From positions 32,187 through 96,186 of IMG/VR virus record IMGVR_UViG_3300044655_001100: 64,000 nt of DNA. One strand, written 5' to 3'. Below the pieces are notes generated by a model, which saw only the letters and a list, made by a program, of their open reading frames with translations, ran no database searches and was not told the origin of the DNA. The DNA comes from a virus. The number at the start of each line of letters is the position of its first letter. The first letter of the stretch is position 1. Of this stretch, positions 3,764 to 25,519 are shown piece by piece. Both the position numbers and the translations under genes were made by a program.

Positions 3764-4002
3764 TAAGCGTTATATTATCAATCATATCTTCCCTGTTTTC
3801 TTTGGCAGGGAAGGTATTTGATTTCTTATATGCCAAGCAACTGACGGATGCTGGAAAGGCAGAACAACAAGTTGCTGATCTAAAGGCCCAGATAGATGCT
3901 GCTCATAAGGCGTTACAAGCTAGGATTGTTGCTGAGCGTGACGCTTCCGCTAATCCTGACGGGGTGTCAAACGACGACGATGGATTCAAGCGTCCAGACT
4001 GA
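3760..4002 (+). CDS. i-spanin (Rz-like)
   Basis: N-terminal TM helix, coiled coil, C-terminal DDGFKRPD; overlapped by a lipoprotein ORF. Confidence 0.7.
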   Translation: MISVILSIISSLFSLAGKVFDFLYAKQLTDAGKAEQQVADLKAQIDAAHKALQARIVAERDASANPDGVSNDDDGFKRPD

Positions 4003-4129: not shown

Positions 4130-4331
4130 AAAAACATATATAATGATTTTAATTATATTTTTATCATGGGCATTTATTTTATTAATTGTAAAAAATAATT
4201 ATTCTACAAGAGATTATATTACTCCAGAAGAAGAAAGCGCATTAACTTTTATCAGATAAAATGATATAATCTTTTTTAAATTACTAATAATATTCACTAG
4301 CACATAAATAACAATCCAAAAGGAATGCAAA

Positions 4332-5435
4332 GTGCCAACACCCTCCGTGTCTGCTGAAGAACTTCAGCTTACTTATGATTTATACCAATCTTTGGGTAAT
4401 GCTATTGCTGTGGGGATTAGGCTTGGCATTTCTAAAAGCGCAGTTAATAGAAGACTTCAAAAATATGAGGAGGGTAAAACAAAATTCACAGCGCCAAAGC
4501 TTCCGTCGAAAAGCCGTGACATTGAACAATTGATCAAAGATCGGATTGAAGAAAGTAGGAGAGCTAAAAATGCAGATGCTTCCAGAGATCTCATTCGCAT
4601 TCCTGTACACATTGATGGCCCATTTGGTCTACTCATACTTGGCGACCCACACGTTGATGATGCGGGTTGCGACTTCGAATTGCTTGCGCAACACAGGCAA
4701 ATAATCAAAGACCATCCATTCATTCTGGGAGCATCTGTTGGTGACTATCAGAATGGATGGATAGGAAGATTGGGTGCTTTGTATGGTGAGCAGCAAACAA
4801 CAAGTAAAGAAGCGTGGAAGCTGGTGGATTGGCTGGTTAGCGAAATTAAGTGGCTTTTTCTTATTGCTGGTAATCACGATTTATGGGCAGGTGTGGGTGA
4901 TCCACTGGAGTGGATTGCAGCCCAGCAAGGTAGTCTCTACGAGCCGCACGGTGTCCGCATCGAATTGCATCACCCATGTGGGGCCAAGACAAGGGTTCAC
5001 GCGAGGCACGATTTCCCTGGAACGTCGATTTACAGCCAGCTGCATGGACCACGCCGTGAAGCAATAATGGGTTATAGAGATGATTTAATTATATGTGGAC
5101 ATAAACATACAGGAGCATGTGAAACGTTTGTCACTCCTGACGGAAATGTATGTCAAATTGTCAGAGTATCTGGATATAAAGTTGCAGATTCCTATGCAAA
5201 ACAACTGGGTTTAAAGAAGCATAATATTTTTCCTGGGGCGCTTTGCATAATAGATCCATCCGCTCCAAATACTTCACCAAATCGTGTTTTTACTGCCCCA
5301 AGCGTGGAGAAAGGTGTTATTATTTTAAACGCTCTCAGAGCAGATTTCGAGTCATCACGGGGCATTTCCAATGTGCAAAAACACAAACAAAAAACTCGTT
5401 CAAAACAACAACTTAGTCGGCGGAATTCACGATAA
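4332..5435 (+). CDS. Calcineurin-like metallophosphoesterase with N-terminal HTH
   Basis: GDPH, GD, GNHD, H, GHKH motifs. Confidence 0.85.
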   Translation: MPTPSVSAEELQLTYDLYQSLGNAIAVGIRLGISKSAVNRRLQKYEEGKTKFTAPKLPSKSRDIEQLIKDRIEESRRAKNADASRDLIRIPVHIDGPFGLLILGDPHVDDAGCDFELLAQHRQIIKDHPFILGASVGDYQNGWIGRLGALYGEQQTTSKEAWKLVDWLVSEIKWLFLIAGNHDLWAGVGDPLEWIAAQQGSLYEPHGVRIELHHPCGAKTRVHARHDFPGTSIYSQLHGPRREAIMGYRDDLIICGHKHTGACETFVTPDGNVCQIVRVSGYKVADSYAKQLGLKKHNIFPGALCIIDPSAPNTSPNRVFTAPSVEKGVIILNALRADFESSRGISNVQKHKQKTRSKQQLSRRNSR

Positions 5436-5647: not shown

Positions 5648-6160
5648 ATGATAACACAAGAATATTTAAAATCTGCGTTAAAATATAATCCAGATACAGG
5701 TGAGTTTTTTTGGAAATATCGTGAAGATATGCCGAAACAATGGAATTCTCTTTGGTCGGGAAAAAAAATAATAGGAAGAAGATGTAAACGAGGTTATTTG
5801 TATATATCAATATGCAATAAAAGATATGGAGCACACAGATTAGCATTTTTATATGTAAATGGCTGGTTACCAACAGAAGTTGATCATATTGATGCTAATG
5901 GAAAAAAGGACGATAACCGAATAAAAAATTTAAGGTCGGCATCAAGTATTGAAAACAAAAATAATGTAGGAATTAGAAAGAACAGTACTAGCGGTTTCAA
6001 GGGAGTTTGTTGGCATAAGGGTGCTAATGGATGGATATCTCGCATTAGGGTTGATTCAAAAAGGATTAATCTTGGTATTTTTGATTGCCCAGCCGCAGCA
6101 TCATTTGCCTATCAAGTAGCTTCAAATATTCATCACGGTGAGTTTGGTAGAATTGTTTAG
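5648..6160 (+). CDS. HNH homing endonuclease with AP2-like C-terminus
   Basis: YNPDTGEFFW, AHRLAFLY, VDHID...DNRIKNLR, NSTSGFKGV.W, LG.F. Confidence 0.9.
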   Translation: MITQEYLKSALKYNPDTGEFFWKYREDMPKQWNSLWSGKKIIGRRCKRGYLYISICNKRYGAHRLAFLYVNGWLPTEVDHIDANGKKDDNRIKNLRSASSIENKNNVGIRKNSTSGFKGVCWHKGANGWISRIRVDSKRINLGIFDCPAAASFAYQVASNIHHGEFGRIV

Positions 6161-6412: not shown

Positions 6413-6488
6413 TGGTGCCCGTTAAGAGATTCGAACTCCTGACCTACTGATTACAAATCAGTTGCGCTACCAGCTGCGCTAAACGGGC
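6413..6488 (-). tRNA. tRNA-Thr (UGU)
   Basis: 76-nt cloverleaf GCCCGTT...AACGGGC-ACCA; anticodon arm ACTGA-TTTGTAA-TCAGT; TTCGAAT T-loop; encoded CCA. Confidence 0.95.
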
Positions 6489-6489
6489 A

Positions 6490-6672
6490 TTACTCTTTAT
6501 CTTTTTCTTTAACTATCCCTAGTTCTTTTTCAAGAACTTTTATTTCTTCACGCAGACGGACGATCTCATCTCTAGCATCGCCAAGCATTTGCTCATGGGC
6601 GCTTAACAAAGAGCGTCCATTTAGTCGGCAGTCAATTCTTCTGACTATATCAATCACGGGCATTTGAGACAA
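6490..6672 (-). CDS. Hypothetical coiled-coil protein
   Basis: DIVRRI...DARDEIVRLR pattern typical of small phage ORFs. Confidence 0.55.
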   Translation of the reverse strand: MSQMPVIDIVRRIDCRLNGRSLLSAHEQMLGDARDEIVRLREEIKVLEKELGIVKEKDKE

Positions 6673-6744
6673 AAAGCCATACTAGGAAAGCAGCGAAGCT
6701 CCCCCCACTTATGGCAATTGCCCAAGAAAGTAAATCGCTGTCGC

Positions 6745-7350
6745 TCACGCATTGACCCTAGTAGCAGTTGCTTCCCAAATAACGCTCTCTACTAACTTGG
6801 TCGGGTCTGTAGCATCCTGTGTAATGAATTGCGTAGCCACAGGGCCAAGTCCCAGCTGCATCCAGTATCGAGCTCCAGTTGCTGGCTTACCATTCCAAGA
6901 CTGTAGATAGCTGAAGACTAGGACGTTATCGTATGTAACCCCAGCAGCAGTGTAAGATGTAAGAAGCTGCTCAAAAGCCACAATCTGATCGCCGCAACTC
7001 GTGGCTGGTGGCCAGCATTTAAAGAAGTCAAACTGTGGGAAGTTCTGATATGTGCTTCCAATGGCTTGAAATTCTCCCCAACCAATCGCAGGTGAGAGGA
7101 CGACCTTTTTGTTGTTGGGATAGTCATCTCGCCACTCCGCAATCCCAAATCCTGGGTTATAACGGTAATACCATCTATTTAGCCATGTTAAATTGGCATC
7201 GTAATTATTATAGAGAATGCTATCGCTGCCAACGTCATAACTGAAGACACTGGTGAAATTAGGAGCCCCTTCAGCCTTATAATCAAACCTTCTTAGCTCA
7301 TGGGTTTTGAATAAAGGCCAATAGGCGGGTACAAAAATAGGGTTGCTCAT
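6745..7350 (-). CDS. Hypothetical Trp/Tyr-rich protein
   Basis: 201-aa ORF, GGAG RBS, coupled to neighbour. Confidence 0.7.
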   Translation of the reverse strand: MSNPIFVPAYWPLFKTHELRRFDYKAEGAPNFTSVFSYDVGSDSILYNNYDANLTWLNRWYYRYNPGFGIAEWRDDYPNNKKVVLSPAIGWGEFQAIGSTYQNFPQFDFFKCWPPATSCGDQIVAFEQLLTSYTAAGVTYDNVLVFSYLQSWNGKPATGARYWMQLGLGPVATQFITQDATDPTKLVESVIWEATATRVNA

Positions 7351-7718
7351 GGTATCTCCGTTTGAAAAACAATACCTTTTTCAAAAGCTTTTTTCAACTT
7401 TAATAGTTTTATTTGCCTATTTCTTCTAGCATGAACCAATTGCGTAGACCGGCAAATCTTTTCCAATCTATCATCATAATATCGGCCTTTGGTAGCCGCC
7501 ATCTTTTTATGTAAATATAAGCAGGACGTATGGTCAAGATTAAGGATTTTGCCTAATTGCGGGTAAGATGGTGGTTTCTCACTGTTCCTTAATTCATATA
7601 TTATTTTAGCCCTAGCAGCTGTAATAGCTATATCTCTTCTTGCCCTAGATAATATAGCTTCTTTAGGCATATTATAATTCTTAGCTGTTTCATCTATTAT
7701 TTTCTTAATTCTGCTCAT
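7347..7718 (-). CDS. DnaA C-terminal (domain IV)-like DNA-binding protein
   Basis: R.R.I..AR..IIY.LR....SYPQLGKILNLDHTS resembles the DnaA HTH signature. Confidence 0.75.
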   Translation of the reverse strand: MSRIKKIIDETAKNYNMPKEAILSRARRDIAITAARAKIIYELRNSEKPPSYPQLGKILNLDHTSCLYLHKKMAATKGRYYDDRLEKICRSTQLVHARRNRQIKLLKLKKAFEKGIVFQTEIP

Positions 7719-7911
7719 TTTTAACCAACCCCAAATGCTTCCAACGTTTTCCTAATTTTATCGCTGATATTGTTCGTTGATTTATACCAAACTCTATAGC
7801 TAATGCTTCTTGCTTCTCACCATCATTTGCACGTTTAAAAATCTGTCTAATTTGCCACTCTTTTAACTTGTGATTTGCATGTTGCTCACCACGTACGCCA
7901 CACAGACTCAT
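7705..7911 (-). CDS. Small HTH protein (resembles the C-terminal DNA-binding domain of homing endonucleases)
   Basis: RGEQHANHKL...LAIEFGINQRTISAIKLGKRWKH; start moved to the ATGA overlap at 7911. Confidence 0.7.
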   Translation of the reverse strand: MSLCGVRGEQHANHKLKEWQIRQIFKRANDGEKQEALAIEFGINQRTISAIKLGKRWKHLGLVKNEQN

Positions 7912-9537
7912 TTTTTTAATTCCCTTATCCTCCAAGCAATACCAGCGGCGGTATCACAAATCCCCTGACAATAGGGATCGTCCCGGTTATATTCGTCATT
8001 CATACTTTCAGCTATTTCGGCTGCTTTTTCTATTGCCTCTTCCCATCCGCTCTCCCATGCAAGAAGCATAGTCATATCCGGTTGGCGTAATTTCGAGACT
8101 TCTTGCTGCAGTCTGCGAATTATTAAAATCTTTTCCTCTGAACTTAGTTTGCTGAGTTCCCGATCATGCCAACCCTGTTCCATCGTATTCGCCTTTTAGA
8201 TCTCGTATAGCCTTGGCGACTTCCTTCTTCCGCTCTTCGGCATGTATCTTACTTACTATATGTTTGGCGCCAATGTCATAAGCCTCAACGACCTTGGCTG
8301 CGCTCTCCAAGCCATCCAGCAACCCTCGCCCATAGGCGTTCTGAATCATCCAGTGAACATCAGATTCGTTAAATATTGCCACGATCAGCCTCTAGCTCCT
8401 TGATCTTCTCCAAGAGGCGCTGGTTCATAATCTCACTGGTCTTTTTGCGCTGGGCCTCACAGCCAGCATTTAAGGCGGCTTTCATGCCTTCCTTGTTAAT
8501 TAGCTGACGATCACCACCAAAGCCTACTAAGGCTATCCAAGCAGCGTCAATTGCCTCATCGTACCAGTCCATTGATCTCTCCTTAGTGTAAGCCATCAGT
8601 TTACAGGCTCATCTTCCCGTATAGCGGCAGCTATCATCTTGCCTTCGTTTGGGTAATAGATGTTTTCAGCTATTTTGGCGCAACGCTCACGCTCTTGCTT
8701 TAGCTCTGCCTCTAGTTCAGCGATGCGCTTTGCTTGTGCTTCTAATGCGTCTGCGGATTCTCCGGCATCGCCGTCTTGCAAATGTTCTTGTAGAAGCCGC
8801 AATCGCTGCACTAGGTCTGAATAGTCAGTCATTCTCGCCCCATCGTAATGTTCTGCTGCGCACGGATGTCTTGGTTTGCATACGTCCAGCATTCCCTACC
8901 ATCGTCCAGAAACACAACCCAAAGCAGATTATGCTCTGGGCCATAGTCTATCACCAGGTGCGCAAGGCCACTGCCCCTAGGTGTCATTACAGGCAATGGA
9001 GGATTCAGCTGCTGGATGTGGGTCACTTCTTATCCTCACTCTCCAAAATAACGTCCGATGCTGATGTTTGACTCAAAATATCCTCACCTGCGCGAATTAA
9101 GTAATCTGGTATCTCTGTCGTCATTGTCATTTGATTGCGCTTGGCATCCTGCGAACTAACGTATTTAAACAATTCCGTCATCCATCCCTGTAAGAACGCA
9201 ATACGTCTTGACATTAGTTTACGTTTCCAGAGATAGGCGTCACACTCGAATTTCAGTTGATGTTCAAGTTCCTCAATCCGATTTGCTTGTTCCTCAATAG
9301 CGTCGGCGGCTTCGCATTCAGCTACAAGATCGTTCCACTTGGTTCTCAGTCGCTGCACAAGGTCTGTATGGTCAGTCATTTCTTCAATTTCCTTATAGCT
9401 GCAGCCAGTTCTTCTTTGGGTAAGTCAAGACTGTTTAATAAATTTGCCGCATCATCAATGGCGCCATTATAAACTTCTCGAAAGATAAAAGTTAATATTT
9501 GCAATTCTCGCTCATTTAATTCTGAATCTTCGCTCAT
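7908..9537 (-). other. Cluster of about 7 short coupled accessory ORFs (7908-8183, 8164-8382, 8369-8596, 8596-8832, 8829-9026, 9023-9379, 9376-9537)
   Basis: Overlapping start/stop codons; shared E.AA.IAE...IA..IR motifs; two start MTD..DLVQRLR. Confidence 0.7.
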
Positions 9538-20177: not shown

Positions 20178-21536
20178 TTAAAATCCATCCTCATCCTCAT
20201 CATCCCAAAAATTATCTGATTTAGTTTCTTTCAGGAATGATGGGATGTTTTCCTCTGGTTCATTTGTATCAGTTTCTGATACATCATTAGTTTCTGGCGC
20301 CTCTAAACCCCATGCTTCCCAGCCATCTCTTGCTCTTCTGGCATTCAATTCAATTTTGGGAAGGCTAGGAAAATAAGCTTCAATCATCCGGTAAATGCTG
20401 TCTGGCTTTACGCTGTGTTCCTGTACAGGATCGCTGAACACAGACGGGAATTGTGAACCAGGGGCTGGAGAAGGAATCACTCCCTTTACGCCAACCAATA
20501 AAATCTCATGCTGGTTTCTAAACCAGTAACCAGTTCCCATGCGATCTTTAACCCAGACTGCTTGAGACTTGTACGTGAAGCCCCATGATTCCATCACCCG
20601 CAAAGCATCGGGAAGCATTGGAACTGTAGCCCAGAGAAACAAAACAGAATTCCTATCTGCAATATCTCCTATTGGGAGATTGCAAATATCATCTGTTGTT
20701 TGACATGGATAATGATTATCAGCGGATCGATCCATTCCGTTATCGCTGAAGGTTTTAAATTTCCACGGTGGATCAGCCAAAATGATTCCAAACTTGGCAT
20801 CCGGTAGGGATATTTGTTTCTGACCTAGGACACGTTCCTTCTCGGCTCGTTCCTGCTTTTTTACCTCAGCCCTTGCCGATACCTTCTCTCCTCCTCTGGC
20901 CCTTTCAATCAGAGCGGCCTGTACATCCTCAGCCAGCTTCGCCAGTGCGTCTAATTCAACGCCAGCATCCAATGAGGTGCCTACGAGCTCAGCGATATCC
21001 TTGATGCTTTTAACCCGCTTTGCGTCCCGCTCTACTGCTGCAGAGGATCGATTGGTGTCCCTAGCCACGGCTTGGGCTGAGTTGGAATGTTTGGTCTCAG
21101 ATAGTTTCCCCTCAAATTGAGAGGAAATTCCCTCGTCTGATTCGTCCCTTGGACCAGTTTTGAGTCGGTATTTTATTTCTGCGATCTCTTTGAGTCGCGC
21201 AAAGTGCATAGATTGTTGGGCTGCAGTCAGTTCGTGCCGAATCAAATTTTCGCAAAGTTCAATTTGCTCTGCGTCTAGGGCATCTATTCCCTCTAAAACA
21301 GTGGCTTGGATATTTTCCCATTTAAGCCTTTTGGCTGCTTCCAGACGATGGCGCCCAGCAATCAGAACATATCCGTTTTCTTCTGTACGCCGTACGCAGA
21401 TGGGATTTATCAGACCAATATCACCCATAGATGCAGCGAGTCTTTCAACAAGGTCTGGTCTTTTGGGAATATGCCGATCATCAGAAATATGAATTAAAAC
21501 AACACCAATATTCTCAACATTATGTTGATTTGTCAT
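20178..21536 (-). CDS. ParB-like N-domain fused to MT-A70 adenine methyltransferase
   Basis: GLINPI.V......LIAGRHRLEA...ENL.R.EL; ADPPW...HY...LFLWAT...WGF.YK...HSVKP. Confidence 0.9.
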   Translation of the reverse strand: MTNQHNVENIGVVLIHISDDRHIPKRPDLVERLAASMGDIGLINPICVRRTEENGYVLIAGRHRLEAAKRLKWENIQATVLEGIDALDAEQIELCENLIRHELTAAQQSMHFARLKEIAEIKYRLKTGPRDESDEGISSQFEGKLSETKHSNSAQAVARDTNRSSAAVERDAKRVKSIKDIAELVGTSLDAGVELDALAKLAEDVQAALIERARGGEKVSARAEVKKQERAEKERVLGQKQISLPDAKFGIILADPPWKFKTFSDNGMDRSADNHYPCQTTDDICNLPIGDIADRNSVLFLWATVPMLPDALRVMESWGFTYKSQAVWVKDRMGTGYWFRNQHEILLVGVKGVIPSPAPGSQFPSVFSDPVQEHSVKPDSIYRMIEAYFPSLPKIELNARRARDGWEAWGLEAPETNDVSETDTNEPEENIPSFLKETKSDNFWDDEDEDGF

Positions 21537-21722
21537 GCGCCAACTCCTTATTAGGGCGCAGCGTCATAACATGGACTCAAGTATAATTATAGGGAAAAAA
21601 AGCGGCGGCGAGGATGGTTGACATCACTCAGCCGCCAAGATACCTTTGGGGTATCAATTACGGGATTGCCGTCCCTAATTGATGACACTGCGTGAATAAA
21701 AACGATAGATCAGGATTTATCC

Positions 21723-21983
21723 ATGTCACCAACTGACAATAAAAATACCGTCGAGAAGAACAAAAAGCAACCCCCTGTCGATGCACGGGCTGCACATGAA
21801 CTGACGGCTAAGATTCTCAACCATCTCCGCATGTCTGTCCATTACGCCCATCTGGCGGCAGACCATGACGAAATCTTTGATAACTTTGGGTTTGACCGTT
21901 CCGTAGAGCATTTTATCGGCCATGCCAAAGACGTAGCCACCCTCCTCAATAAGTTGAGAAAAACTAGGGGGGTAACGGAATGA
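21723..21983 (+). CDS. Hypothetical protein
   Basis: AGGA RBS; TTGACA-17-TACCTT upstream. Confidence 0.6.
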   Translation: MSPTDNKNTVEKNKKQPPVDARAAHELTAKILNHLRMSVHYAHLAADHDEIFDNFGFDRSVEHFIGHAKDVATLLNKLRKTRGVTE

Positions 21984-22004
21984 AGTAGCTTTATTGTATA
22001 TACA

Positions 22005-22360
22005 CCCCTCACGTAGCAGAGCCTTTTGAGGCCCATAGTAGCAGCGGCAGAACCGTGGCGAATGGGATCAGGTGAGGGAAGCGTCGTAGTATCGGACGTT
22101 AAAACGATGCCGCACGAAGAGACTGAAAAACTACGTCAACGACGTATATTGGCAAGAGGTATACGCTCGTCACCGACAGAGAGATAGCTGCGGTTATGGT
22201 TTGGTAAATGCTGTCCACCAGACCGTTGTTCTTAGATGAGCAACAACCCGCATCCTTGCAGCGTTATGGATGGGACTCAACTCAACCGATTAAAACGCCT
22301 CTACCCCCTTACTAGGGGGGATAGGTGCGTCTGAACAGGATCTAATCTAACCGATTAAAG
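22005..22360 (+). ncRNA. Candidate structured non-coding RNA or replication origin
   Basis: No ORF of 60 aa or more across most of it; about 9 helices, several with G-U pairs on the + strand. Confidence 0.5.
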
Positions 22361-22468
22361 TGATAAAATGGAAAACTTCATACAAATAAAACAGGAAAAT
22401 GAAGCCATCGTAGCAGTCTGGATCTTGGGCGCCGTATGCGGGATATTATTATATTGGTGGAATTCTAG

Positions 22469-22954
22469 ATGAGAGTAATAACGCTAAGTCCTAAAGAATG
22501 CGCTTGGGGAATTGAGGTGGGTTACAAACGTATGTTTGAAAGCCCAAAGCAAGGGTATAAGGACAGTAGAGAATTAGCGGATGCCCCGGTAAGAACTAAA
22601 ATCTGGATTGACGTTAATGGCGCCTGTGGTGAACTGGCTGCTTGCCTGGCACTAAATGTTGATTGGTCTGCCTCAGTTAACACTCCCGATGACCCAGATA
22701 TAGTTATTGGTGAAAATAAAATAGATGTTAAAACCGCTGATAGGCATGGTAAAAGATTATTGATCCCAGATCATAATATAAATAAGCGATTGGATTGGTG
22801 GTATCTTCATGTTACTGGATGCATACCAACGTATCATGTATGGGGCGCCATAAAGGTTACAGATGCATTTGAAGTAGGCAGTTATGAAGACCCAGACGGA
22901 AGAGGATGGGCTTCTTTCGTTGACAAAGTTGATTTAACTAAGAAATTCACGTGA
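22469..22954 (+). CDS. PD-(D/E)XK-like protein
   Basis: G..GELA......PDI......IDVKT. Confidence 0.55.
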   Translation: MRVITLSPKECAWGIEVGYKRMFESPKQGYKDSRELADAPVRTKIWIDVNGACGELAACLALNVDWSASVNTPDDPDIVIGENKIDVKTADRHGKRLLIPDHNINKRLDWWYLHVTGCIPTYHVWGAIKVTDAFEVGSYEDPDGRGWASFVDKVDLTKKFT

Positions 22955-23427: not shown

Positions 23428-24006
23428 ATGAAAGTATTAACAAAGCCGCGAGAATTGGTATCTATTGATATAATTAAAGAATTTCTAGATTATAATGATA
23501 ATACAGGGAAGCTGTATTGGAAAGTAAGAGATATTAAGTATTTTAATGATGGTGAGAGAAAAGCTAATGCATGTTCTATATGGAATTCTAGATATTCTGG
23601 GAAAGAGGCTGGATGCATAGATGGCAGTAACAGAATTATTATAAGAATATTTAAAAATACATTTTTTGCTCATAGGCTTGCCTTTATTATTATGAAAGGG
23701 AGAGAACCAATTGAGCAAATAGATCACATTAATGGTGATTCTTTAGACAATAGATGGTGTAATCTTAGAGAATGTTTTGATTATGAAAATAAGCAAAATT
23801 TAACTTTGCGGTCAGATAGTTCTACAAAAGTTCAAGGTGTATATTTTCACAAAAAACGTACAAAAAATCCTTACGAATCTAGAATTAGATTGCGCGGCAA
23901 ATCTTATCATCTAGGTATGTTTAAAACATCTGAAGAAGCAGATAAGGCATACTTAAAAGCAAAACAAAAATTACATACCTTCCAACCAACTCCAAGGGAG
24001 GGTTGA
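23428..24006 (+). CDS. HNH homing endonuclease (AP2-like C-terminus)
   Basis: AHRLAF, IDHINGDSLDNRWCNLRE, HLG.F.T.EEA..AY. Confidence 0.9.
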   Translation: MKVLTKPRELVSIDIIKEFLDYNDNTGKLYWKVRDIKYFNDGERKANACSIWNSRYSGKEAGCIDGSNRIIIRIFKNTFFAHRLAFIIMKGREPIEQIDHINGDSLDNRWCNLRECFDYENKQNLTLRSDSSTKVQGVYFHKKRTKNPYESRIRLRGKSYHLGMFKTSEEADKAYLKAKQKLHTFQPTPREG

Positions 24007-24010
24007 TATT

Positions 24011-25519
24011 ATGAAACAACTTCGTCCATATCAAACACAAGCTGTTAAAGAATTTTGGAACGTTTTTGATAAAGGAGAAAAACTTGTATTTGCTGCCCCC
24101 ACAGGTGCTGGGAAAACTCGCGTTGCAGCCGAAATATTTTCCGTTGCAAGAGAGCGTGGTCTTAGATGCGCTTTTACTGTTCCATTCCTTTCATTGATAG
24201 ATCAAACATGGGATGCTTTTGCTCACGTTGGGATCAGTGAGCGTGATATGTCAATTATTCAGGCTGATAATCCTTTTTGTGACTATTCAAAAAATGTCCA
24301 AATATGTTCGGCTGACACGCTTGTCCGCAGGAAAAATTTACCTGAAGTTGACGTTGTAATTTTTGATGAAGCTCATAGGCAATCTAAAATTTATAAAAGA
24401 TGGATGGATGAATATCCTAATGTTAAATTTTTGGCTATGTCAGCAACCCCGTGGGCCAAAGGCATGGCAGAGATCTGGGATAGATTGATTATAGTCAGTA
24501 CAACAAGGGAATTAATAGAGCAGAAATATTTATGCGATTATAAATATTACGCTCCCACGAGTCCTGATCTTACTGGCGTTAGAATTATTGCAGGCGACTA
24601 CCATGAAGGAGAATTGGGTAGCGCCATGAACAAGCCAGAGTTGATCGCAGATATCGTAAAAACATGGAAAGAAAAAGCAGAGAATCGCCCTACTTTATGC
24701 TTTTGTGTGACGAGAGAACATGCAAGAGAAGTTCAATCGCAGTTTTTAGAGAATGGCGTGGCTGCAGGCTATTGCGATGCTTATACCAGTGTAAGTGATC
24801 GCAAGGAATTAATTGATCAGCTTAAAACTGGTCAATTAAAGATTGTCGTTAATATTGGTACTTTAACTACAGGACTTGATGCTCCATTTTTAAGTTGTAT
24901 CATTTTGGCTAGGCCAACTAAAAGTGAAATGTTATTTTTGCAAATTGTTGGTAGAGGTTTGCGCACTCATGGGTCTAAAGATCATTGTTTAATTCTTGAT
25001 CATTCAGATACCGGGTTAAATCTTGGATTGCCTTGCACCATTCATTACACTGATTTGAAATCTGGAAAGATATCAAAGGAAGCTAAGGCGGCAGCTAAAG
25101 AAGCAGCTAAGGAAAAAAATACAAAACCTCATAAGTGCATTTCTTGCAATCACGTACATGATCGTTCGCTTATGGTCTGCCCCAGCTGTGGTCATATCCG
25201 CAAACGCATCAGCGATGTTATTATGCGTGAAGGATATTTGTCTCAACTAGATCGTGACGGTAGCCAGAAAGCAATCATTGGCGTTGACAGAGCTATAAGA
25301 CAAGATTGGTATAGTGGTCTTTTATATATCTGTATGGAACGGGGGTATGCCCAAGGCTGGGCTGCGCACAAATGGAAGGAAAAATTTGGTGGATTCCCCG
25401 ATAACTATAACAAGATTGCTAAGCCTCCTTCAAATGCTGTTCGCAGTTGGGTACGTTCTCGTCAGATTGCCTATGCTAAGGCTAAACAAAAGCAAACCGC
25501 ACAGGGTATCACATTCTGA
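24011..25519 (+). CDS. Superfamily II helicase with C-terminal Zn ribbon
   Basis: LRPYQ, PTGAGKT, DEAH, SATP, TGLD.P, QIVGRGLR, C..C...C..CG. Confidence 0.93.
   Translation: MKQLRPYQTQAVKEFWNVFDKGEKLVFAAPTGAGKTRVAAEIFSVARERGLRCAFTVPFLSLIDQTWDAFAHVGISERDMSIIQADNPFCDYSKNVQICSADTLVRRKNLPEVDVVIFDEAHRQSKIYKRWMDEYPNVKFLAMSATPWAKGMAEIWDRLIIVSTTRELIEQKYLCDYKYYAPTSPDLTGVRIIAGDYHEGELGSAMNKPELIADIVKTWKEKAENRPTLCFCVTREHAREVQSQFLENGVAAGYCDAYTSVSDRKELIDQLKTGQLKIVVNIGTLTTGLDAPFLSCIILARPTKSEMLFLQIVGRGLRTHGSKDHCLILDHSDTGLNLGLPCTIHYTDLKSGKISKEAKAAAKEAAKEKNTKPHKCISCNHVHDRSLMVCPSCGHIRKRISDVIMREGYLSQLDRDGSQKAIIGVDRAIRQDWYSGLLYICMERGYAQGWAAHKWKEKFGGFPDNYNKIAKPPSNAVRSWVRSRQIAYAKAKQKQTAQGITF

Follow-up and report, generated by a model that had tools for sequence, protein, structure and literature searches.

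A previously undescribed family of putative structured plus-strand RNA elements carried as cassettes in phage early operons

GOLLD and ROOL are large orphan structured RNAs that are often found in phages and prophages (PMC2864571; bioRxiv 10.1101/2024.12.08.627333). The element described here resembles them in being a phage-borne RNA that runs to several hundred nucleotides, apparently forms multiple helices and has invariant junctions and loops, in drawing its support from sequence comparison rather than experiment, and in having a function that is not known. It differs from them in matching neither these nor any other Rfam models in sequence or structure, in lying inside an operon beside replication genes, and in ending in a repeat-hairpin-repeat arrangement. 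With a length of about 355 nt, it is also shorter than GOLLD and ROOL, which measure some 600-800 nt.

Three further systems invite comparison. Like RNA II of ColE1, the element would be a structured RNA of several hundred nucleotides that is read towards a defined DNA site, it has a run of G near its 3' end in two of three members, and its phage has no recognisable initiator protein of its own. Unlike RNA II, it is carried by phages and not by a plasmid, its G-run is not conserved, and neither an RNA I-type antisense gene or promoter nor a match to the Rfam RNAI model was found. DicF, from the dicB operon of the Qin prophage, is a transcript of about 53 nt that acts by short antisense pairing. 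The element shares with the DicF precursor its non-coding nature, its place inside an early immunity-side operon, the lack of a promoter of its own and a need for processing if the RNA is to be released; it differs from DicF in a length about seven times greater, in a fold that is complex and conserved, and in showing no target complementarity that we could find. The put sequence of HK022, finally, consists of two stem-loops in about 70 nt. In two of the phages discussed below (the window phage and L002) the element comes immediately behind the small gene that opens the rightward early operon; this placement and a possible cis action of the RNA recall put and the nut sites of lambda, from which the element differs in that the copy of a third phage, L014, follows the helicase gene and in that no downstream terminator was identified.

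The window, by which we mean the whole 64,000 nt that were analysed, makes up the final 64 kb of an IMG/VR phage contig of 96 kb, the leading 32 kb of which are structural in appearance. A gene for a ParB-MT-A70 methyltransferase (20178-21536) points leftward, and a rightward operon begins with an 86-aa ORF (21723-21983), continues with a 34-aa single-helix membrane peptide (22368-22472) and the phrog_18407 protein (22469-22954), and runs through a small HTH protein and an HNH endonuclease to a DEAD/SNF2-type helicase (24011-25519). Erf, a RecE-like exonuclease, VRR-NUC, GcrA and several methyltransferases are also encoded near the element, which occupies the space between the 86-aa and 34-aa ORFs. 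Profile searches of the 50 ORFs of the window recovered no initiator, primase or polymerase.

That this space is non-coding, as the preliminary description of the locus had it, is confirmed by several observations. No ORF longer than 53 aa is present in 21984-22367, stops interrupt all six frames, and the mismatches that separate the element from its homologue in L014 are distributed 21/21/13 over the three codon phases, with neither a 3-nt periodicity nor a third-position bias; the idea of a decayed gene was dropped on this evidence. The 4227 models of Rfam 15, which include GOLLD, ROOL, HEARO, RNAI, tmRNA, RNase P, introns and ribozymes, gave a single match at gathering threshold in the whole window, a tRNA-Thr at 6416-6488. 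Between 21500 and 22900 no model, RNAI included, matched at E <= 10, and nothing was found in the element regions of the related contigs L002 and L003. ARAGORN called no tRNA or tmRNA at default or 90% thresholds, and a tRNA-like fold was dropped because the only calls, at 80%, were mutually inconsistent 'tmRNAp' assignments on opposite strands in the window phage and L002. A scan of 21400-22900 found no plus-strand intrinsic terminator, and we recognised no promoter belonging to the element itself; minus-strand promoter- and terminator-like sites around it occur at chance level. Neither the window element nor that of L014 holds a DnaA box, taken as a 9-mer matching TTATCCACA at 7 or more of 9 positions, for which the background is 3.4 per kb, and further copies of the element's motifs were found nowhere else in the genomes. 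An attP site was also considered and dropped, as no integrase is encoded nearby.

The preliminary description called the stretch densely structured, which its folding energy does not bear out. The plus strand folds with a minimum free energy of -116.7 kcal/mol, a borderline result against shuffled sequences (z -1.79, with 4 of 100 shuffles equally good); the minus strand gives a z of -1.24. Ranked by GC-regressed energy among all 384-nt segments of the sequence, the element comes 141st of 332, and so does not rise above background. The evidence for structure comes from covariation instead.

Searches of viral contigs with the flanking proteins returned only two relatives, the syntenic IMG/VR contigs L002 and L003, in which the ParB-methyltransferase gene is followed by an 85-aa ORF, an ORF-poor, G+C-rich stretch, an AT-rich small gene and the phrog_18407 gene. 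Compared with shuffles, the ORF-poor stretches have z values of -2.44 (L002) and -3.85 (L003), and the plus strand is again the more stable in both. A first, strict DNA pattern matched L002 only. A degenerate pattern derived from the core of the window phage and L002 located the element in L013 and L014, which are one phage recovered from two metagenomes (99.98% identical); its three other matches are chance occurrences in coding DNA. Nothing close was returned by blastn and tblastn against cultured phages, no copy was present in a sample of 401 alphaproteobacterial genomes, and a scan of genome contigs with the ParB-methyltransferase gave only distant ParB matches. The sole match of the metagenome scan was L004, a near-identical 1.4-kb contig that diverges from the window phage exactly at 22368 and ends 184 nt upstream of the 34-aa ORF, too short to show presence or absence of the element.

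The phage represented by L014 is unrelated to the window phage and of the temperate type; it encodes a CI-like repressor, an MT-A70 methyltransferase, RusA and a DnaA-domain-IV-only protein. The last of these (6483-7022, 179 aa) is essentially DnaA domain IV (PF08299, E 2e-18), lies two genes upstream of the helicase gene and has no counterpart in the window phage. The elements of the two phages are 79.9% identical over 259 nt (blastn), and their similarity starts at the first helix (22005) and stops after the second repeat (22359), very nearly the limits first proposed from the window sequence alone; their helicases are 39% identical, and their phrog_18407 proteins 28%. The reverse holds for L002, whose helicase is about 80% identical to that of the window phage, yet only the core and the 3' end of the element are held in common. 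There the local alignment scores 37, against 18.4 +/- 2.3 for shuffles, and an 8-mer and the 14-mer GATAGCTGCGGTTA are identical. The element follows the 86-aa (85-aa) ORF in the window phage and L002, and in L014 it sits between the helicase gene (7508-9031), which it immediately follows, and a 71-aa ORF; the gene downstream thus differs from phage to phage (the 34-aa membrane peptide in the window, a 123-aa ORF, the 71-aa ORF in L014). In all three it is within 2 kb of the helicase gene, and in every case it is co-oriented with the flanking genes. Because the history of the element is decoupled in this way from that of its neighbours, it behaves as a cassette, and we conclude from these comparisons that it is a horizontally mobile one, which fills the whole intergenic space in the early/replication operons of phages.

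The corresponding slot of L003 has no sequence or alignable structure in common with the window phage or L002, and the core model R1 introduced below does not match it, from which it follows that the same slot can hold an unrelated structured spacer. This spacer (4207-4666) is a 460-nt G+C-rich, ORF-free stretch with the strongest folding of all (z -3.85 on the plus strand, -3.12 on the minus strand), no Rfam match and no similarity to the family of the window phage, L002 and L014, and it may represent a second new RNA.

Several features of the neighbouring genes deserve mention in their own right. The sequence GGACTCnnGTATAAT (window 21574-21586; L002 ~3820-3838; L003 ~3806-3824) is conserved 5' of the 86-aa ORF in all three related phages. 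It forms a -10-like box directly next to a GANTC (CcrM-type) methylation site, and GcrA is among the proteins of the phage; the leader that follows the box contains two conserved hairpins (21639-21655 and 21653-21683). The 86-aa ORF has 25 metagenomic homologues and no Pfam or PHROG match. Its AlphaFold model (pLDDT 86) is a generic two-helix hairpin with a basic, disordered N-terminus, and comparison of the model with the PDB gave no informative match, so that a Rop-like RNA-binding role is neither favoured nor disfavoured. The 34-aa ORF (22368-22472) encodes a single hydrophobic helix, shares an ATGA overlap with the start of the gene behind it and is 98% identical at the DNA level in L004; the gene upstream of it differs there from that in the window phage, for which reason a type I toxin leader for this peptide was dropped. 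L004 (98% identity) also lacks about 481 bp at window 23512-23992, inside the HNH/AP2 gene (23428-24006), which marks this endonuclease gene as a presence/absence insertion. Such a pattern between the HTH ORF and the helicase gene is as expected for a free-standing homing endonuclease, and a paralogue is found in the window at 5648-6160 (phrog_99). In each of the three phages a member of the phrog_18407 family (22469-22954 in the window) is encoded 0.1-1.3 kb downstream of the element; in the alignment of this family D48, E55 and D86-V87-K88 are invariant, a pattern that, judged by eye, resembles the PD-(D/E)xK nuclease motif. In L002 and L003 this gene is preceded by an identical 36-mer, TTATTGACATTATCCAAAATGTATAATAGATGGAGC (4964-4999 in both contigs), which is absent from the window phage; the DNA upstream of it differs between the two, and within it TTGACA and TATAAT are just 12 bp apart.

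The layout of the element in the window, as supported or revised by the comparisons that follow, is this:

22005-22359, plus strand: the whole cassette, from the first helix to the second direct repeat, shared with 9064-9421 of L014; no Rfam match
22006-22078, plus strand: 5' three-way junction, with closing stem 22006-22012/22072-22078
22082-22116, plus strand: helix H2, with 5 basal pairs conserved and 6 distal pairs not kept in L014
22139-22170, plus strand: helix H4, 12 pairs (22139-22150/22158-22170) with a 7-nt loop
22169-22197, plus strand: highly conserved joining block, GUCACCGA...GAUAGCUGCGGUUA
22190-22251, plus strand: core three-way junction, made of P1 (22190-22195/22245-22251), P1a (22198-22205/22217-22224) and P1b (22225-22231/22238-22244)
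22284-22294, plus strand: direct repeat copy 1, AACCGATTAAA, preceded by GGACTC
22304-22319, plus strand: terminal hairpin P2, CCCCCU-UACU-AGGGGG, with the conserved word A(G/A)GUG(C/U)G after it
22349-22359, plus strand: direct repeat copy 2, preceded by GGATCT and ending 8 nt before the ATG of the 34-aa ORF

The structure predicted from the window sequence alone was checked on L014 in a sequence-only MAFFT alignment. Thirteen of its pairs are changed on both sides, as compared with 1-7 in controls slid by 1-3 columns, and only 1 of 500 shuffles reaches this number. Four helices, the 5' closing stem, H4, P1a and P1b, are 100% paired in both phages and are maintained through two-sided changes, which, with the absence of any Rfam match, upholds the proposal of a new plus-strand ncRNA. 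The closing stem changes from CCCUCAC/GUGAGGG to CUCCUGC/GCAGGAG by 4 two-sided changes and no break, and H4 accommodates 2 two-sided and 3 one-sided changes. Within the 5' junction, the hairpin at 22021-22032 (GCCU-UUUG-AGGC) is invariant, and a second hairpin, closed by 22033-22036/22062-22065, is variable and partly kept. H2 has 5 invariant pairs, 2 two-sided changes and 3 broken pairs.

All of the complementary words listed in the preliminary description are present in the window at the positions given there, and they fared unequally as hairpins. CCCTCAC/GTGAGGG, GGTTTGGT/ACCAGACC and GTTGTTC/GAGCAAC show compensatory changes in L014; GCCT/AGGC and CCCCCT/AGGGGG are invariant there, and CCCAT/ATGGG loses one pair. 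GCGTCGT/ACGATGC and CATCC/GGATG are not conserved as hairpins, and TACGTC/GACGTA is displaced by the better-supported H4. The comparison with L014 likewise lent no support to the hairpins predicted between 22252 and 22300, to the distal part of H2 or to an outer long-range helix.

We built two covariance models, R1 for the core (from the window phage and L014) and R2 for the 5' domain. R1 scores 152 bits in the window phage, 151 bits in L014 and 23 bits in L002 (E 0.002-0.003, at the expected place), and R2 does not recognise L002; what all three phages have in common is the core and the 3' module only. In the three-sequence alignment of the core, for which the L002 row was fitted to R1, 33 pairs have 97.8% of their cells paired and 12 of the 33 show two-sided changes, against 0-3 in slid controls and with none of 500 shuffles as high, all of this from three independent sequences (the window phage, L013/L014 and L002). 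The addition of L002 raises the number of H4 pairs with two-sided changes to 7 of 12. Homologues with two-sided changes are thus found in two other phage lineages, the kind of covariation that had been named as the check on the original proposal. The family core can be described as H4, the GUCACCGA...GCUGCGGUUA block and the P1/P1a/P1b junction, followed by a repeat-hairpin-repeat module, and this arrangement is present in the window phage, L013/L014 and L002. When the window phage and L002 were compared with our own PMcomp-like aligner, shared structure was higher (z 3-4.6) and compensatory pairs were not above unrelated controls; the window phage and L003 showed no similarity.

The loop of P1a is a conserved 11-nt sequence, AAAUGnnnUCC, and part of it (22211-22215, CUGUC) is complementary to 22175-22179 (GACAG) in the joining block. 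The three variable positions of this candidate pseudoknot co-vary in L002, where CAG/CUG becomes UGU/GCA, a single comparison that is suggestive of pairing between the GUCACCGA-CAG block and the P1a loop. The G-U pairs in the supported helices lie on the plus strand and correspond to A-C mismatches on the other; together with the greater stability of the plus strand in the window phage, L002 and L003, they bear out the earlier argument from G-U pairs for a plus-strand RNA. The high identity between the window phage and L014 could reflect recent transfer and not selection, but the pattern of substitutions argues for selection on pairing, and we consider it very probable that the element is a selected RNA structure.

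The 3' module has a character of its own. All three phages carry an exact direct repeat of 10-11 nt on either side of the last hairpin, with a sequence particular to each lineage and a spacing of 63-65 nt: AACCGATTAAA at 65 nt in the window phage, where the 11-bp repeat is exact at 22284 and 22349 as first described, ACCGAATATC at 64 nt in L014, and TTTGCGTTTAT at 63 nt in L002. The words that precede the two copies, GGACTC and GGATCT, are the same in the window phage and L014. No further copy of the repeats occurs anywhere in the genomes (for the window phage, in the 96-kb contig), and no conserved pairing partner was found inside the element. Since the two copies change together between phages, a shared partner is likely to read them, whether as RNA or as DNA. 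Five pairs of P2 are invariant in L014, and L002 has a counterpart in the same place, UUAUCCCU-UGCGCU-AGGGAUAA. In the window, P2 is followed by AUAGGUGCGUC and not by a U-tract, so that it does not qualify as a terminator. Copy 2 lies 8 nt (window phage), 12 nt (L002) or 18 nt (L014) from the next start codon.

We conclude that 22005-22359 represents, on the strength of these alignments, a putative and previously undescribed family of structured plus-strand RNA elements in phages that is not in Rfam. The reading we prefer, and on balance believe, is a non-coding RNA module that acts in cis or after processing, an assessment that includes the uncertainty about its function. Because we recognised neither a promoter nor a terminator belonging to the element, and its orientation is that of the genes around it, we take it to be made from the operon transcript; it would be transcribed on the plus strand as part of the early/replication operon. 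Its predicted fold has three parts, the 5' three-way junction, a conserved core (H4, an invariant single-stranded block, a probable pseudoknot and a second three-way junction) and the 3' repeat-hairpin-repeat module. The invariance of junctions and loops suggests a compact fold that is recognised by something, and the invariant loops and paired repeats would be recognition sites for a protein or nucleic-acid partner. Such an RNA might act in cis on the operon transcript, or as a processed ncRNA.

The ColE1 RNA II-like idea of the preliminary description, a transcript-primed (R-loop) origin of replication, is in our view an unlikely explanation. By this account, read-through RNA from the early operon would form a persistent hybrid or be processed at the 3' repeat-hairpin-repeat, and the RNA 3' end, or a primosome loaded there, would start DNA synthesis by the host polymerase. 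Consistent with it are the failure of profile searches to find an initiator, primase or polymerase in the window, the proximity of the element to the helicase gene, which is less than 2 kb away in each of the three phages and immediately precedes the element in L014, and a cassette mobility that is independent of the flanking genes, like that of origin modules. The 3' module also resembles a DNA site, with two co-varying repeats 63-65 bp apart around an inverted repeat. The G-run speaks on both sides, being G6 in the window phage and G9 in L014 but reduced to GGG at the homologous hairpin of L002. No antisense regulator was found, no AT-rich unwinding region is conserved across the three phages, nothing links the RNA 3' end to DNA synthesis, and L003, a close relative, has an unrelated structured spacer in the same slot. 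The locus does not resemble an iteron or DnaA-box origin either, as there are just two repeats and neither DnaA boxes nor an initiator gene were found, and the Erf and exonuclease genes of the phage offer recombination-dependent initiation as another route. If the idea were true, a portable origin would explain how replication starts where the phage supplies a helicase and neither an initiator nor a primase or polymerase, and the repeats would set origin specificity, hence their concerted divergence.

A purely cis-acting mRNA element of the early operon, with no separate RNA, seems to us improbable. It could mediate processive antitermination in the manner of HK022 put or lambda nut, govern processing or stability, or control translation of the gene that follows. 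In favour of it, the window phage and L002 have the element in a nutR/putR-like place behind the small gene that opens the rightward operon, its orientation is that of the flanking genes in all cases, no promoter or terminator belonging to it was found, and the second repeat stops 8-18 nt short of the next start codon. The L014 copy, however, lies deep inside the operon, after the helicase gene, the downstream gene is different in each phage, and no anti-Shine-Dalgarno logic is common to the three. At about 355 nt, with invariant junctions, the element is also far above the known size of put and nut.

It is quite improbable that the locus is mainly a DNA-level site, with iteron-like or recombination binding sites for a phage protein and RNA helices that are palindromic or incidental. 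The co-varying repeats, about six helical turns of DNA apart, do accord with a DNA-binding protein no less well than with an RNA role, and the covariation of the P2 inverted repeat is also what a dimer-binding palindrome would show. Against this, the helices with loops of 7-11 nt keep their pairing through G-U intermediates, and these count as mismatches in a DNA duplex or in the opposite strand; there are just two repeats and no further genomic copies, and no candidate binding protein co-varies with them. That the locus is a spacer without function, or what is left of a decayed gene, in a hypervariable moron slot can hardly be credited: the folding energy is ordinary for this genome and the slot is variable, L004 and L003 differing here, but 80% DNA identity to a phage with 28-39% identical proteins, compensatory substitutions and the lack of a coding signature all speak against it.

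Few large structured RNAs have been validated in phage genomes, and the function of most is not known. The present element has covariation support in three lineages, mobility across phages whose proteins are 28-39% identical, and a fixed link to the helicase/replication module in phages with no recognisable initiator. With the R1 and R2 models, metagenomes can be searched for further members of the family. Should the element prove to be a regulatory or anti-defence RNA, a new class would be added; should it be a transcript-primed origin, it would account for the start of replication in such phages and provide an origin that is compact and portable.
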